NCBI GenBank assembly: GCA_963664295.1
Contig: OY760935.1
Span: forward strand, 736,001-800,000
Length of the DNA stretch: 64,000 bases
From: Candidatus Altimarinota bacterium
Lineage (GTDB): Bacteria > Patescibacteriota > Gracilibacteria > CAIRYL01 > GCA-016699755
Direction of reading: 5' to 3'
A program made the translations under genes and the position numbers. A model generated the notes under the pieces. That model was not told the DNA's origin. It was given only the letters and a program-made list of their open reading frames with translations, and ran no database searches. This document shows, piece by piece, positions 5,691 through 47,450 of this stretch; positions within the stretch are counted from its first letter, which is position 1; each line of letters opens with the position of its first letter.

Positions 5691-6425
5691 TTATTGATTT
5701 GAGTTGTTGTTATTGTTGGCAGGTCTTTTCTTTGCTCTGCGCATACCCATTTCTTCTGGCTCAGTATGCTCCTGAATTTTGGCTATTTCTTCCTCATCAT
5801 CAGAGGTAATTGTGATTTTTATGCCATTATCAAGATTTTCTATTGTTCTAGTGACATTTTCATTTTTTGGTTCACGCTCTGGACGATTTTGTAAAAATTC
5901 AACTGCTTCTTCATTGTCAGAAGTAAGAGTAATTTCTACACCATTATCAATGTTTGTCACTTCACGGTTGATGTCAGCAAAGAAAGCTCCACCAGCGCAA
6001 CCATCATCACGATTGCCACCTCTTTTGCCTCTTCCTTTGTTCATACCTGGCTGTTGATTTTTAGAATGCTCCTGAATTTTGGCTATTTCTTCCTCATCAT
6101 CAGAGGTAATTGTGATTTTTATGCCATTATCAAGATTTTCTATTGTTCTAGTGACATTTTCATTTTTTGGTTCACGCTCTGGACGATTTTGTAAAAATTC
6201 AACTGCTTCTTCATTGTCAGAAGTAAGAGTAATTTCTACACCATTATCAATGTTTGTCACTTCACGGTTGATGTCAGCAAAGAAAGCTTCTCTTTCTTGT
6301 CTAACCCTTGGTGCGTTATTTTCTTGATTATCATCAGCACTAGCAGTCAAAGCAAGAGCACTAACTCCAAACAAAAGAGCAAAGGCCGCAAATAAAGAAA
6401 CTGTTTTAGAGATTTTTGTTTTCAT
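5691..6425 (-). CDS. Secreted acidic repeat protein
   Basis: Signal peptide (ALTASA); two identical 74-aa blocks, each with two xxNxDNGxxITxTSD sub-repeats. Confidence 0.8.
   Translation of the reverse strand: MKTKISKTVSLFAAFALLFGVSALALTASADDNQENNAPRVRQEREAFFADINREVTNIDNGVEITLTSDNEEAVEFLQNRPEREPKNENVTRTIENLDNGIKITITSDDEEEIAKIQEHSKNQQPGMNKGRGKRGGNRDDGCAGGAFFADINREVTNIDNGVEITLTSDNEEAVEFLQNRPEREPKNENVTRTIENLDNGIKITITSDDEEEIAKIQEHTEPEEMGMRRAKKRPANNNNNSNQ
5766..6288. repeat. Exact 223-bp intragenic direct repeat (5766-5988 = 6066-6288, period 300)
   Basis: Direct line-by-line comparison of the two segments. Confidence 0.95.
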
Positions 6426-19386: not shown

Positions 19387-19853
19387 TTTTAACCGGAGAA
19401 AACAACGAAACATTGCGTAAAAAATCAACAGAAGTTGATTTAAAAAAAAGCAAAGAAATAATTAAAAAATTATTCAAAAATATCTCAAAAAAAGAAGCCG
19501 CGGGCCTTGCGGCTCCGCAAATTGGTGAAAATTATCGAGTTGTATTAGTACAAAATGGAGACGATTTTATGCCCATGATCAACCCAAAAATCACCAGTTT
19601 TTCAGTTAACAAAGAAATTGACGAAGAAGGCTGTCTTTCCTTGCCTAATATCTGGGGAAAAGTGCCAAGACACAGCGAAATAGAAGTGCAATACATAAAC
19701 GAACAAGGCGAAAAAATTCAAAAAAGATTTTCCGGCTGGACAGCACGCGTAATTCAACACGAAATCGATCATTTAGATGGAGTTTTGTTTATTGATCGTG
19801 TCACAGAAGAAAACTCAAGCTTAAGTAATTTAAATAATTTGCAAAAATTATAA
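19383..19853 (+). CDS. def: Peptide deformylase
   Basis: [22 protein letters not shown]. Confidence 0.97.
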
Positions 19854-19909
19854 TTTTCAAACCTTGACTGTATTAAAAAATAATTATAAGGTGTCTTCCT
19901 CCTTAATAT

Positions 19910-20356
19910 TTGAATATGAAATATTTATCAGCCAACTCACTAAAATTTGCAAGCACTAACAAAATAGACGCAGAGAATTGTCCTGATTTTCAGGGCTTAC
20001 AAACTATAATATCAACACAAGATGAAGTTTTAGCGCGTTTAATCACCTGCATAAACCTAAATCCAGACAATTCATGTACTAAAACAGGACAAAATTGCAC
20101 CTGCCTACAAACAGACGATCTTACGCCCATATCAACAAAAATAATAAATATGGGAGACATAATTTCCATTATTTCAAAAGAAGTAAAATCAACACAATCA
20201 ATAGAGAATTTCAAGCAAAATATTCAAACAATAATCCAAAAAATCCTCAAAGCAATACAAGACGCAGAAGATGACATAAAAACATTTTTTCCAAAAACAA
20301 CCCCAACACACTGCATTAAAAACAGAACCTTCCAAAAACATTTTAAAGAAACCTAA
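19910..20356 (+). CDS. Hypothetical protein
   Basis: 148-aa Cys-containing ORF, no recognisable motif; start may be the ATG at 19916. Confidence 0.55.
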   Translation: MNMKYLSANSLKFASTNKIDAENCPDFQGLQTIISTQDEVLARLITCINLNPDNSCTKTGQNCTCLQTDDLTPISTKIINMGDIISIISKEVKSTQSIENFKQNIQTIIQKILKAIQDAEDDIKTFFPKTTPTHCIKNRTFQKHFKET

Positions 20357-20369
20357 ATCAATAGCTTTG

Positions 20370-21062
20370 TTTGGCGCATTGAAGATTTTTCGTGTGTATC
20401 CTAGGTCAAATAGATATTTAATTGAATAAATTAAAATCCAATAATTAAGGTATTTGTTTTTGTTTTCGCGCTCTTTTAATTTACCTTCAGGGGATTTTTC
20501 GTGTGTATCCTAGGTCAAATAGATATTTAATTAAGTAAATTAAGCACAAAAAAACACCCAGTAATTAAGGTGCTTTTTTGTTTTTGTTTTCGCGCTCTTT
20601 TGACGCCTTGAGGATTTTTTGTGTGTATCCTAGGTCAAAATAAGCTTGGACGACCAATCCACTCTTCTTGCCATCCTTTGGATAGTATTTTCGGTCTTCC
20701 CTGGACCTGCCCCATTGATGTTTTCGAGTCTAGGGCACATATGTCCCTGCTGAAAACGAGGCACTCAGAGCAAGCTCTGAGAAGATGAGCTCTTAAGGCT
20801 AGTCGTGCCAGAAAAGCTACATCGGAAAGCGAAGAAGACGGAACCTTTTCTTATGAAGCAAAAGAGTGTAAAGATGCTAAGAATAATGCTTTTTTTGTTT
20901 TGCTTTCTTGCTCTTTAGTCTTTTCTCTTCTCAAGAAAAGGCTCTTGTCTTTTTCACTTATGGTAAATCTTAAAATTTTCAAAGGTCGTTTTGTTTTTAT
21001 TTGTTTTTTTATTTTTTTGTGTGTATTTGTGTTCGTTTTTTTTGATTTCTGATTTTGTGTTT
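20370..21062 (-). ncRNA. Candidate large structured ncRNA (locus A); strand tentative
   Basis: No ORF of 60 aa or more; minus-strand TTGCCA-17-TAGAAT promoter (21097-21069); boxA-like CTTTGAAAATT (20984-20974); GC-enriched nested helices at 20650-20870. Confidence 0.55.
20384..20639. repeat. Three copies of a 27-nt core GATTTTT(C/T)GTGTGTATCCTAGGTCAAA, in units of 109 and 120 nt
   Basis: Cores at 20384-20410, 20493-20519 and 20613-20639; units 1 and 2 also share TAGATATTTAATT, AATTAAGGT and TTTGTTTTTGTTTTCGCGCTCTTTT. Confidence 0.92.
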
Positions 21063-21284
21063 CAGAACATTCTAATCAAAAAAGCCCAATCTGGCAACTA
21101 AAACCCCTTGCATGAACAATAAAAATATTATTTAAATATAATTTAATATCAAATAAATAGCTTAAATAAGCCATTTTAATTTTTTTGACTTTTACAAAAA
21201 ACATCATATATAATGATATGAATTATTTAGATACAATCAAATAAACACGTAAAATTACGTGCTTATTTTTTATAAACTCATCAT

Positions 21285-22769
21285 CTAAAATCTCTTATCC
21301 TCCAAATACTCAGCTGGCACATATTCAATCGGCAATTCTTCAATTGGCAAATAATCGAGAGGATTAACATGCTCCCCATCTTCAAAAACCTCAAAATGCA
21401 AATGCGGACCAGTGGTCATCACACCAGCACCTTTTGTTCCTGGAGTACCACCAGAAAGACCAATAACCTCTCCTTCTTTTACAGTATCCCCCTCTGTGAC
21501 CAAAATTTTAGAAACATGACCATAAAGAGTAGTTAAATTATTTTTATGAGCCAAAATAATATAAGAATAACCCATACCATTATCTACAACCTTATACACA
21601 TAACCCAAAGCAGGTGCACGAATAACCTTGCCCTGCGCATAGCGAATATCAATAGCATGATGCTTCATACCAAAAGTCACTTCATAACTAGGATCAAGAT
21701 AATAAGCAGTAATACCACCAGAAGGATCAACAGGCCAAACAAAAGGAATTCCCTCATCAGCATCTTCAAAAATCTTACCAACCTCAAAATTTTCATCACT
21801 CTCATTTTCCTCAAATTCCTCACGCACAGTCATAAAAGCATCCTGCTTCTGTGACTCCAAAATCTGCAATTTTTCTCTAATCATCTCCCTATCATCACGC
21901 AAATCTTTAATAGCCTGCACACTATCCTCCATTTGTTCACGAGATTCTTCCCATAATCTCTGATATTCTTTTTGCTTTCCCTGAGTTTGACGAATTAAAT
22001 CTTCTTTTGCCTGCTTTTGCACCTCAATATTGTGCTTCTCCTCTGACAATTTAGCGTTTAATTCTTCCAATCGCTCTTTTTCTTGGTTCAAAACTTTTTG
22101 AGTTTCCTCAACCTGCAACAAGGCCAATTCCATATTGTAAAAAATTTCTCTTTCTGTTTTTTCCCAAGAAGAAAGATACATTTCATTACGCAAATGAGAA
22201 GAAAAAGAGCTATCCGCCAAAAGCAAAGTAATAGTGTTTTTTACCTCATCATCTCTAAGGCGAGCATTTTCCTTTTGAATAAGCTTAAAAAACTTCAAAA
22301 CCACCTCTTTTTGTGCATCTGCCTCTGCTTTTATTTTTTCTTCTTCTTCATAAAGCAAGCCAAGATCGGACTTTTTCTTTAAAATCTGCATTTCAATCGC
22401 AGAAATTTTTTCATTTGTTTGATCAAGTTGTAAGTTTATGTTTTCTAGTTGTTGCTTAAGCAAATTAAGCTCAGAGCGTACCTTAACAAGCATTTGCTCT
22501 GTCACTTGTGTTGCTTTTAGTGAATCACTAAAGTCTTTATATTCCTCATCAAGTGAATATTTTATTCTTTCTAATCTTAGTTTTCCTTCTGCCATACGAT
22601 CAGCAAAACGATCCTTATAAAGCTCCTCCAGCTCTTGTTCAAGATATTTTTCTTCCTCTTCGCTTAATGCTGATGCACTAAAAAACCCTGTCAAAAACAG
22701 TGCTAAAACTAATGTTATTGCTAGTAATACCGATATTTTATTTGTCTTTTTTTTCATATATTTTATCAA
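21285..22769 (-). CDS. Coiled-coil protein with C-terminal M23 peptidase (EnvC/MepM-like)
   Basis: Signal peptide, long coiled coil, HHAIDI, TLYGH, TGPHLHFEV. Confidence 0.92.
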   Translation of the reverse strand: MIKYMKKKTNKISVLLAITLVLALFLTGFFSASALSEEEEKYLEQELEELYKDRFADRMAEGKLRLERIKYSLDEEYKDFSDSLKATQVTEQMLVKVRSELNLLKQQLENINLQLDQTNEKISAIEMQILKKKSDLGLLYEEEEKIKAEADAQKEVVLKFFKLIQKENARLRDDEVKNTITLLLADSSFSSHLRNEMYLSSWEKTEREIFYNMELALLQVEETQKVLNQEKERLEELNAKLSEEKHNIEVQKQAKEDLIRQTQGKQKEYQRLWEESREQMEDSVQAIKDLRDDREMIREKLQILESQKQDAFMTVREEFEENESDENFEVGKIFEDADEGIPFVWPVDPSGGITAYYLDPSYEVTFGMKHHAIDIRYAQGKVIRAPALGYVYKVVDNGMGYSYIILAHKNNLTTLYGHVSKILVTEGDTVKEGEVIGLSGGTPGTKGAGVMTTGPHLHFEVFEDGEHVNPLDYLPIEELPIEYVPAEYLEDKRF

Positions 22770-22859: not shown

Positions 22860-23410
22860 TTGTTACGCCATCGTTGCAAGAACGACGCCAAAGGAGGAGG
22901 ATGCGACAATCCACCCTTGCTGTCATTCTGAGCGAAAAACACACCTTTTCTATCATTCTGAGCGGAAAACACGCCCTTGCTGTCATTCTGAGCGGAATGA
23001 AATGGAGCGAAGAATCTCCTTGTCCATTTGCTCAAATCCTGCCTTAGGTAATTGTGCAGTAATGACAACGGGAGATCCTTCGCTTCGCCTAAAGGCTCGC
23101 TCAGGATGACGAAGTAAGGGGGCTCAGGATGACATTACATTTGTCATTATGGATTTTTTGGGATGTCATTGTGGACTTTTTGGGGTGTCATTGCGGACTT
23201 GATCCGCAATCTTGGGAGGCAGGAGGTGTCATTGTGGGCTACGACCCATTTTTCGCCCCTATCGGGCTTCAAAGGGCAAGTCCACAATCTCCTTGTCCAT
23301 TTGCTCAAGACCTGCCTTAGGCGCCCCTACTTTGTCATTCTGAGCGAAGTCCGCCCAGGCGGATGGAGCGAAGAATCTCCTTGCCCATGTTCTCAAATCC
23401 TGTCTCAGTC
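22860..23410. repeat. Mosaic array of TGTCATT-hairpin palindromic repeats (dRS3/RPE/REP-like)
   Basis: At least 7 TGTCATT heads (e.g. 22921, 22981, 23142, 23164, 23186, 23227, 23333), many followed by a hairpin closing in (G/C)AATC; inverted copies end in ATGAC. Confidence 0.88.
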
Positions 23411-23525: not shown

Positions 23526-23802
23526 ATTGAGCAATTTTATTAGAAATTAAAGTATTAGTTTAATAAAGGAAAGGTTTTTAGCAGAATGCGAGGAGGACGG
23601 TGCGAAAAGTGGAGTGGGCGAATTAAATCAATGAGCACACGGAACAAAGAGCATGATTTTTGAAAAAAAACTTTAGTTTTTTTAAAAAAAATCAAGTCCA
23701 ACCCATTCGAGTTTCTTTTTAACTGCAAAAAGAAGGAATAGAAGAAATCAAATCCAACCCATTCAAGTTTCTTTTTGCTTACAAAAAGAAAAGATAGAAA
23801 AA
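23526..23802. repeat. Dispersed ~220-bp non-coding repeat, copy 1 (with internally duplicated 3' module)
   Basis: Near-identical to 47141-47359. Confidence 0.9.
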
Positions 23803-23921
23803 ATGAAAATTAACTCATTCGAACTTAAATTTGACCACAAAAAAAACAAACCAAAAACACCCATCAAAACATTGCATTTATCCCAAAAATATGAGATAAT
23901 ATAAAGATTTTTACAACAAAA

Positions 23922-25687: not shown

Positions 25688-26075
25688 TGTCATTGTGGGC
25701 TTTTTGGGATGTCATTGTGGGCTTGACCCGCAATCTCGGGAGGTGTCATTCCGAGCAAAAAACACACCCTTGCTGTCATTCTGAGCGGAGTGAAACGGAG
25801 CGAAGAGTCTCCTTGAACATGCGCTCAAACACTGCCTTAGGTAATGCAACAGTAATGACAACGGGAGATCCTGAATCGAGTTCAGGATGACAGAAAAAAG
25901 AGGCGGGAGGTGTCATTGTGGATTTTTTGGATTGTCATTGTGGGCTACGACCCGCAATCTCGGGAGGTGTCATTCCGAGCGAATCCTTCGTAGCTTTAGC
26001 GAAGAAGGAGAGCCGAGGAATCTCCTTGGACATGCGCTCAAACACTGCCTTAGGTAATGCAACAGTAATGACAAC
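25688..26075. repeat. Second mosaic array of TGTCATT-hairpin repeats
   Basis: At least 7 TGTCATT heads; shares modules (e.g. CTCCTTG..CAT..GCTCAAA..CTGCCTTAGGTAA) with 22860-23410. Confidence 0.88.
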
Positions 26076-32348: not shown

Positions 32349-33392
32349 TTAATTATTCTCATCTAATATTTTATTCAATCTTCTTATGGTTTCAGAAATC
32401 ATTCTATTGCTTGTTCCTCCTAATGTAACCTCTTCCGTAGTCCCATCTTTTCTATATGCTGTTATTCTTGTTGCTTTAAATTCTCTACTGCTTCCTGAAA
32501 TCTTAAGTGGAATTTTTTCCACAGTCACATCACTAACTTCAGGATTATCTTTTAAAAGAACTCTTAATTGATTTAAAACTGGACCATCAGGTAATCCTGT
32601 GATATTAATTTCATGTTGCAAGTTTGTTGAAGATTTGTCTTCTAATCTTTCTTCGTTTTCTTCTTCAAAATCAGGCTTATTCTCATCTAATATTTTATTC
32701 AATCTTCTTATGGTTTCAGAAATCATTCTATTGCTTGTTCCTCCTAATGTAACCTCTTCCGTAGTCCCATCTTTTCTATATGCTGTTATTCTTGTTGCTT
32801 TAAATTCTCTACTGCTTCCTGAAATCTTAAGTGGAATTTTTTCCACAGTCACATCACTAACTTCAGGATTATCTTTTAAAAGAACTCTTAATTGATTTAA
32901 AACTGGACCATCAGGTAATCCTGTGATATTAATTTCATGTTGCAAGTTTGTTGAAGATTTGTCTTCTAATCTTTCTTCGTTTTCTTCTTCAAAATCAGGC
33001 TTATTCTCATCTAATATTTTATTCAATCTTCTTATGGTTTCAGAAATCATTCTATTGCTTGTTCCTCCTAATGTAACTTCTTCCGTAGTCCCATCTTTTC
33101 TATATGCTGTTATTCTTGTTGCTTTAAATTCTCTACTGCTTCCTGAAATCTTAAGTGGAATTTCTTCCACAGTCACATCACTAACTTCAGGATTATCTTT
33201 TAAAACAGCTCTTAATTGATTTAAAACTGGACCATCAGGTAATCCTGTGATATTAATTTTATGTTTCAAGTTTTCCAATCTTTCTCTGCTACTTGCCTCA
33301 GTGGTTTCTTGTTTTTTTGATAAATTTTCTAAAAACACCAAACGATTTTCTTTGTTGTTTATAAAATCTGTATATTTAATTTGTTTTTTCAT
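32349..33392 (-). CDS. Hypothetical protein made of three 108-aa tandem repeats
   Basis: ORF track; DNA period of 324 nt. Confidence 0.8.
   Translation of the reverse strand: MKKQIKYTDFINNKENRLVFLENLSKKQETTEASSRERLENLKHKINITGLPDGPVLNQLRAVLKDNPEVSDVTVEEIPLKISGSSREFKATRITAYRKDGTTEEVTLGGTSNRMISETIRRLNKILDENKPDFEEENEERLEDKSSTNLQHEINITGLPDGPVLNQLRVLLKDNPEVSDVTVEKIPLKISGSSREFKATRITAYRKDGTTEEVTLGGTSNRMISETIRRLNKILDENKPDFEEENEERLEDKSSTNLQHEINITGLPDGPVLNQLRVLLKDNPEVSDVTVEKIPLKISGSSREFKATRITAYRKDGTTEEVTLGGTSNRMISETIRRLNKILDENN
32353..33273. repeat. About 2.8 near-identical 324-bp tandem repeats (starting 32353, 32677, 33001)
   Basis: Direct comparison; only a few substitutions, concentrated in the 33001 copy. 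Confidence 0.95.
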
Positions 33393-47140: not shown

Positions 47141-47359
47141 ATTGAGCAACTATAGAAATTAAAGTATTAGTTTAATAAAGGAAAGGTTTTTAGCAGAATG
47201 CGAGGAGAACGGTGCGAAAAGTGGAGTGGGCGAATTAAATCAATGAGCACACGGAACAAAAAGCATGATTTTTAAAGAAAAAAGCTTTAGTTTTTTCAAA
47301 AAAACCAAGTCCGACCCATTCGAGTTTCTTTTTGCTTACAAAAAGAAAAGATAGAAAAA
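47141..47359. repeat. Dispersed ~220-bp non-coding repeat, copy 2
   Basis: Near-identical to 23526-23802. Confidence 0.9.
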
Positions 47360-47450
47360 TAAAAATAGTTCAAAACAATGATGATCAATAAAAACAACCT
47401 TGAACAATCCCTCTCAAAAAGGCAAAATTACATATATATTAAAAACTCAC

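Follow-up and report, generated by a model that had tools for sequence, protein, structure and literature searches.

A predicted large RNA with a pseudoknotted four-way-junction core forms a new family in Patescibacteria

Large, highly structured classes of bacterial RNA are, to our knowledge, few, and most of those with known roles are central to the cell (RNase P RNA, tmRNA, SRP RNA, introns). OLE RNA has an associated gene, oapA, and no such gene accompanies the RNA described here. Among described systems, the raiA motif RNA (ModT) is likewise a bacterial RNA that stands alone, with two pseudoknots in a compact core and variable peripheral stems, and it has been reported to bind KhpA/KhpB, its function being unknown (available part of PMC12968392). 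In the same text a 5'-3' helix P1 of fixed length closes raiA, and the raiA PK1 connects loop P3b with the P5-P6 linker, whereas PK1 of the present RNA joins a loop within the junction to a hairpin past the closing helix, there is no Rfam match and the phylum is different; neither the P1 closure nor the P3b/P5-P6-linker PK1 that mark raiA was found in the topology of the core. ROOL, GOLLD and OLE are similar in size (500-800 nt), covarying kissing loop, A-rich loops and unknown function (available part of PMC12286853), but the new RNA matches none of their models, has far fewer conserved helices and gave 0 hits in viral contigs with three exact patterns. OMEGA RNAs (IsrB/IscB, HEARO) resemble the new RNA in their long 5' hairpin, followed by a closing stem that encloses further hairpins, in a pseudoknot to the region beyond this stem and in their terminal hairpins (available part of PMC9581776). 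They differ from the new RNA, which has no adjacent nuclease gene, carries its own conserved promoter and terminator and has a 5' hairpin that overlaps the closing stem; in place of a short variable 5' guide it has a conserved start motif and 5' regions of 30-530 nt.

Other known RNAs were also compared. tmRNA, RNase P, SRP and 6S RNAs resemble the new RNA in having their own promoter and long-range helices likely guarded by temporary pairings, and the tmRNA and RNase P RNA of this genome have a boxA-like site in common with it, but its conserved motifs and topology match none of the four. With regard to 6S RNA, neither the rod of about 190 nt with a central bubble nor any match to RF00013 was found in this genome; 6S-like matches just below the Rfam cut-off were observed in two of five carriers, both Patescibacteria (G029:C48:1532-1687 and G227:C2:256557-256741). 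Neither a helix 8 domain with an Ffh partner nor a large SRP RNA was found, Ffh having no match above cut-off in this genome and the small-SRP model being covered within the Rfam scans of the loci. Retron, DRT and DGR systems are likewise not indicated, with 0 RVT_1 matches in the genome and no reverse transcriptase among the neighbours. A riboswitch or T-box would not be expected from downstream genes that vary and are often convergent and from a terminator outside the alternative helices. Resemblances to P7 of group I, to P4 of RNase P and to the HDV and VS ribozymes were discarded because the order of the strands does not agree. A literature search over titles and the starts of abstracts found no published description of the RNA. 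It is also unnamed in the accessible part of a 2026 preprint clustering intergenic regions (bioRxiv 10.64898/2026.10.21.760802), whose database or closed supplement might hold it as an unnamed cluster.

The locus lies in a closed genome of 1.215 Mb (GC 33.5%), within the stretch of 64,000 nt analysed here (the window), between a convergent ORF of 148 aa, past recA and def, on one side and an M23 peptidase gene on the other. A preliminary description, made from the letters of the window, had proposed here a candidate novel large non-coding RNA on the minus strand, and this was supported both by strong covariation and by the Rfam check that it had called for. In the window, Rfam 15 returned RNase P RNA, tmRNA and two tRNAs, and nothing at the locus either at the gathering threshold or at E<=10. 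In 32 homologous loci (20 + 12) all matches were sub-threshold, the best of all being a 29.9-bit RsmY match against a cut-off of 57. The gap holds no ORF of at least 60 aa between 20356 and 21285, as had been noted; its size, described as unusual, is not, since 75 gaps of at least 350 nt were counted by a crude ORF mask. The coordinates of the features are collected in Table 1.

Table 1. Features of the RNA locus, as positions in the window
Feature	Position	Strand	Basis or remark
Sigma-70-type promoter (-35, 17 nt, -10)	21069..21097	-	same layout before homologues
Predicted RNA gene, ~520 nt, from start to terminator U-tract	20546..21065	-	fold, promoter and terminator motifs, homologues
Conserved start motif, a few bases past the -10 box	21059..21065	-	invariant columns in alignment A1
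A/C-rich single-stranded leader	20990..21058	-	length and content differ greatly among homologues
boxA-like site, likely a NusB/NusE site	20974..20987	-	a similar motif precedes the core in many homologues but not in every one
Segment 2, 5' arm of long hairpin P0, upstream partner of segment 3	20947..20959	-	fold and comparison
Apical part of hairpin P0, very variable in length	20841..20944	-	fold and comparison
Segment 3, pyrimidine-rich, pairs with segment 2 (P0) or segment 4 (Pc)	20824..20839	-	covariation
Hairpin P2, loop 20799-20806 is 5' side of PK1	20784..20823	-	alignments
Perfect hairpin, an insertion absent here in most homologues	20764..20781	-	fold and comparison
P3, short conserved base helix, 3' bulge of 4-6 nt, variable extension	20708..20763	-	comparison
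Hairpin P4 (20693-20707), loop pairs with 20680-20684 (PK2), A-rich linker between	20680..20707	-	covariation
Segment 4, 3' strand of closing helix Pc	20666..20676	-	covariation
Hairpin P6, loop 20650-20657 is 3' side of PK1	20647..20661	-	comparison
3' hairpin P7, variable among homologues	20598..20640	-	fold and comparison
A-rich linker and intrinsic terminator (20581-20546)	20546..20590	-	terminator call
Decayed tandem copies of the RNA 3' end (one 109-nt copy, one partial)	20370..20520	-	past the terminator; this copy only

The 5' parts of the unit agreed well with what had been proposed. The promoter TTGCCA-17-TAGAAT (21097-21069, minus strand) matches the consensus at 10 of 12 positions, a promoter-like site being weak on its own (12 such sites in 19800-21400, 7.3 expected). 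The nearly G-free leader, put at about 75 nt, measures 73 nt (20990-21062; 54 A, 12 C, 5 T, 2 G) and is one of 2 tracts genome-wide with at least 54 A+C in 60 nt, the sole one outside an ORF. The boxA-like motif also gained support, as its 8-nt core lies ahead of 4 of the 40 stable-RNA genes of the genome, including those for tmRNA and RNase P RNA, where 0.37 would be expected, and NusB is encoded in the genome. In addition, the core is GC-enriched (0.43 against 0.34 for the window) and the perfect hairpin is present at 20764-20781. Leaders of other members show repeats of their own: two copies in one genome (G036; L175 and L231) have five to six tandem repeats of 42-46 nt in the leader, 5' of the core, and leaders of family f20 have a different A/C-rich motif, repeated two or three times. 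A role of the leader as a rut site was considered and dropped because Rho was not found in any of five RNA carriers; it gave no match in this genome.

A loose pattern rule yielded a promoter-to-terminator unit in 50 of 53 homologues, with rough lengths of 285-807 nt (median 525); the other 3 are truncated at the edge of a contig or of the sequence examined, and a few unit ends were called wrongly. The rule requires the start motif, so the start-motif count obtained with it is not independent. No common reading frame was found among the homologues, in which the distance between landmarks modulo 3 is distributed 14/8/15 and the longest sense ORF ranges from 15 to 148 aa. As to the strand, left open between plus, minus or both in the preliminary description, the evidence leans to minus, with 16 G-U against 1 A-C in ten covarying pairs read in that orientation. 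The minus-strand fold has a z of -7.9 against shuffles and the plus strand one of -2.95; folding energy alone leaves the strand unsettled, because the antisense z is equal or stronger in 2 of 6 homologues. The locus is predicted to be transcribed independently as a stable non-coding RNA.

The RNA has homologues well beyond this genome. Two collinear double BLAST hits led to homologues in three other genera and to a second copy in this genome, whole-unit BLAST otherwise matching mostly low-complexity A/C tracts. Successive covariance models found the RNA in 26 (R1), 32 (R2) and 55 (R3, E<=0.05) of the 151 genomes of the window's class, two R1 hits being discarded as coding; at E<=1e-4, R3 retained 39 of the 151, training genomes included. 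The full architecture was recognized by eye in 13 families of this class. Of 20 new R3 hits checked in the same way, 13 show it complete and 1 has the 5' half alone; 5 look like false hits and 1 was unscored. R3 gave no or few hits in several families (f9 0/15, f24 0/7, f13 1/14, f23 1/10). Outside the class, R2 found nothing in 150 other genomes of the phylum sample, which reflects a limit of sensitivity because R3 then found real members there (11 hits, of which 3 look real by eye), in two other classes. In a second class, a BLAST DNA query from one member matched 106 of 146 genomes, mostly with one copy each, against 10 of 146 with R3, 5 of them real by eye; three families of that class gave no match in 16 genomes. 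Search sensitivity is clearly limiting, and the blank families in both classes may still carry the RNA. A BLAST search with the second-class core over 401 genomes of the phylum gave 31 hits, those outside the second class being short and A-rich and the two inspected not being homologues. Pattern searches contributed little: one over the genome collection found 33 loci with only 2 family members, a leader-plus-boxA pattern failed as a probe (0 of 151 genomes, this genome's own locus being missed as well), and three exact patterns, insensitive and leaving out one subfamily, gave the 0 hits in viral contigs. We are nearly certain that this is a real conserved structured RNA family.

Its core is modelled as a four-way junction composed of the closing helix Pc, the hairpin P2, the bulged helix P3 and the hairpin P4. 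In PK1, a kissing-loop pseudoknot, the loops of P2 and of hairpin P6, the latter just beyond Pc, pair with each other; in PK2, in the window's class, the P4 loop pairs with a short strand ahead of the 3' side of Pc, and a simple hairpin takes the place of PK2 in the second class. P6 is followed by the variable hairpin P7, an A-rich linker and the terminator. These pairings were evaluated on plain MAFFT alignments, built from sequence only. In A7 (28 units) 13 pairs of Pc, P4 and PK2 are paired in 95.3% of cases, 8 of them with two-sided change, and controls slid along the alignment reached 24-45%; in A9 (13 second-class units) 45 pairs, including PK1, are 95.7% paired, 18 with two-sided change. 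In each of the two alignments 0 of 500 shuffles reached the observed pairing, so that the covariation check proposed in the preliminary description was passed; the shuffle control ignores relatedness, and the covarying changes span families. One Pc pair occurs as five pair types across all 28 sequences, and Pc holds a conserved U-C mismatch in 19 of the 28. The PK1 loops covary across families, scoring 12.5 with their own partner against 9.6 with those of other families (some loops being mis-picked by the script), and PK2 pairs also change, in two homologues. A tRNA-CCA-sensing role was therefore dropped, since the PK2 bases covary.

None of the long-range pairings previously listed turned out to be a conserved one. 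The 20650-55/20984-89 helix appears in the single-sequence fold, but the conserved partner of 20650-57 is the loop 20799-20806, and the three others overlap strands with conserved partners elsewhere. The length of the core between landmarks is 89-149 nt, mostly 102-124, and the smallest whole unit (G025) has 285 nt. Few bases are invariant (8 of 198 columns in alignment A8). The most conserved sequence is an A-rich 9-mer, which 39 of 50 units contain, compared with 8.9% of windows drawn at random from the genome, and which is often repeated in loops and linkers; the A-rich linker past P2 is near-invariant in A9. The second-class form was also seen to be extended on its 3' side by a large additional domain, in which a long conserved hairpin precedes the terminator (L240, L248, L258, L281, L283). 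We take this conserved knotted fold, as predicted from the alignments, to be a new family, absent from Rfam.

The comparison further indicated that segment 3, the 5' strand of Pc, has two possible partners, being complementary to an upstream arm in most homologues of the window's class. It pairs better with its own partner than with that of other families in 37 of 37 cases for the upstream arm and 35 of 37 for segment 4; the arm was picked as the best duplex, which favours this test, and it beats all 60 shuffles in only 21 of 37. In nested folding without pseudoknots P0 is preferred by a median of only 4.5 kcal/mol; Pc appears in 2 of 37 folds of the full unit, and deleting the 5' part raises this to 31 of 37. 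PK1 and PK2, unscored in nested folds, could tip the balance to Pc. The sharing of the Pc 5' strand with the upstream arm suggests a transient folding helix or a switch, and the simplest reading is a transient P0 helix guarding the Pc strand. For RNase P, SRP and tmRNA, the available part of a review (PMC8632103) describes temporary helices by which the 5' strand of a long-range helix is guarded. The exchange of partners is not universal: P0 is missing from one unit (G025) and is no more than short in another (G139), and second-class members have P0 and Pc at the same time, enclosed by an outer closing helix. Segment 2 can itself be held, in several families, by an additional upstream strand.

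The genes around the RNA differ from genus to genus and are often convergent, with truB adjoining in three genera. The expected synteny between def and the M23 gene was not supported: def was present in 20 of 20 genomes of the order and the RNA lay within about 1.5 kb of 0 of the 20 def loci in other genomes. No transposase, nuclease or reverse transcriptase was found in 54 neighbouring ORFs, and no partner gene travels with the RNA among the neighbours scanned. The 148-aa ORF (19910-20356, plus strand), which has no Pfam match and converges on the RNA tail, differs at several positions in a related strain, and structure look-ups for two neighbouring ORFs gave no match. In the second class the RNA lies between a conserved unnamed gene upstream and dksA/yteA-like and lspA genes; the upstream gene has no homologue in this genome. 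Its product, of 450 or more aa (L264:1-1374 and 11 similar ORFs), has no NCBIfam name and one sub-threshold Pfam match, and its C-terminus presumably resembles a degenerate DinG-type helicase domain. Elsewhere in this genome, the 3' tail of the 16S rRNA (C1:568657 region, L078) appears to deviate from the usual anti-Shine-Dalgarno form, as the latter is generally known.

Repeats and duplications were found at several scales. The unit had been described as about 700 nt long with a repeat tail: the three-copy tail is there (spacing 109 and 120), but most of it lies past the terminator at 20581-20546, which makes the RNA about 520 nt long and leaves most of the tail outside. The tail arose by duplication of the last hairpin and terminator and has since decayed; it was seen in 1 of 50 complete units, and a contig of a related strain skips 109 nt of it (one contig, depth 4.2). 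A 16-nt tail pattern matched 37 metagenome loci, none homologous outside the pattern; the tail is an accident of this copy of the locus. The second, diverged copy in this genome (C1:1190860-1191420, plus strand; locus L125:4875-5425) has its own promoter and terminator and is flanked by a gene for a nucleotidyltransferase and a convergent one for dehydroquinate synthase II. Furthermore, eleven genomes carry 2-3 copies, some being recent duplicates of the whole unit, as in G002 (L166:1171-1900 and L167:1175-1905; 99.9% over 731 nt, unrelated flanks) and G130 (L178; 91% over 592 nt). The duplicated units include the promoter, and therefore the gene was copied at the DNA level. Other repeats were observed in the window: REP-like clusters (22900-23410, 25690-26075), a dispersed element of 150-250 nt (23541-23809, 47153-47366) also found upstream of the RNase P RNA and past the second RNA copy, and, probably within protein genes, three tandem 324-bp copies (32353-33300) and two copies spaced by 300 bp (5763-6288).

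The explanation that we favour, and that could equally well prove right or wrong, is a stable RNA under Nus control which would pass from P0 to a pseudoknot-locked core and offer its A-rich strands to a protein partner. NusB/NusE would load at boxA, as would be the case for the tmRNA and RNase P RNA of this genome, and during synthesis segment 2 would keep segment 3 in the long hairpin P0. Once segment 4 and P6 emerge, segment 3 would switch to Pc, with PK1 and PK2 paying the cost, and the four-way junction would then present several copies of the 9-nt A-rich motif. These copies may bind, store or titrate an RNA-binding protein or a component of the ribosome or of RNA polymerase, in the manner of raiA, 6S and CsrB RNAs. 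Low sequence conservation (8 of 198 columns invariant) together with high structure conservation fits a scaffold better than a catalytic centre, and the conserved, often repeated A-rich 9-mer combined with this scaffold-like pattern favours a stable protein-presenting RNA; the A-rich linkers may also be mere unstructured spacers. A ribozyme of a new class, its core kept inactive by P0 as long as the 5' arm is neither displaced nor cut away, would account for the compact junction with two pseudoknots and fixed core length, for the conserved U-C mismatch in Pc and for an inhibitory-looking upstream helix. We consider it unlikely, given the few invariant bases, a PK2 that varies in two homologues and is absent from the second class, and no evident substrate. 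A wider proposal, speculative and rather doubtful, is that of a phylum-wide housekeeping RNA of Patescibacteria, a new ribozyme or a core RNP, made as an inactive P0 precursor and activated by strand exchange in streamlined cells without SRP and Rho, and missed elsewhere only through sequence drift.

The near-equal energies of the P0 and Pc states, the further upstream strand that can hold segment 2 in several families and the position of the second-class RNA ahead of dksA/yteA-like and lspA genes would also suit a two-state regulatory switch, responding to a ligand, temperature or transcription speed and acting in trans or on the next gene. Such a switch seems less likely again than a ribozyme, as the switching region does not include the terminator, the next gene is frequently convergent and the P0/Pc overlap is absent in the second class. 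The size and A-rich loops of the RNA fit an RNA-only oligomer as well, with PK1 formed between molecules, as the covarying kissing loops of ROOL and GOLLD are (available part of PMC12286853), and A-rich loops serving as A-minor bridges; against this long shot stand the lack of an Rfam match to either family, just one conserved kissing pair and a chromosomal location, with the insensitive scans of viral contigs blank. Still more improbable is a guide-RNA scaffold of OMEGA type (IscB/IsrB), orphaned or domesticated, or a non-autonomous mobile unit of another kind, to which the loose likeness in part order (available part of PMC9581776) and the recent whole-unit duplications could point. The neighbouring ORFs hold no transposase or nuclease, there is no HEARO match, the position is stable across genera (truB in three genera, and the second class), and the RRXRR domain was found in 0 of five genomes in a search with a silent control. 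Least probable of all is a diverged housekeeping RNA (6S, SRP or a second RNase P RNA) or a reverse transcriptase template. The near-universal single copy in the second class, the lack of a 6S or large SRP RNA in this genome and the template-like A/C single strands speak for it; the separate, below cut-off 6S-like matches in two carriers, RNase P RNA and tmRNA present separately in the window, a topology unlike each, and the blank Ffh and RVT_1 searches speak against it.

Lastly, we regard these loci, on the sequence evidence gathered here, as a predicted new class of large structured RNA in Patescibacteria, new in both family and fold, and the RNA is likely a stable, protein-binding one of a hitherto undescribed kind. 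Its 285-nt minimal form and covarying core are ready constructs for probing, cryo-EM, activity assays and pull-downs. Patescibacteria have shed nearly all dispensable functions. The RNA is present in about three quarters of the genomes of one class and in 2-3 copies in many of another, and is therefore probably needed by the cells.
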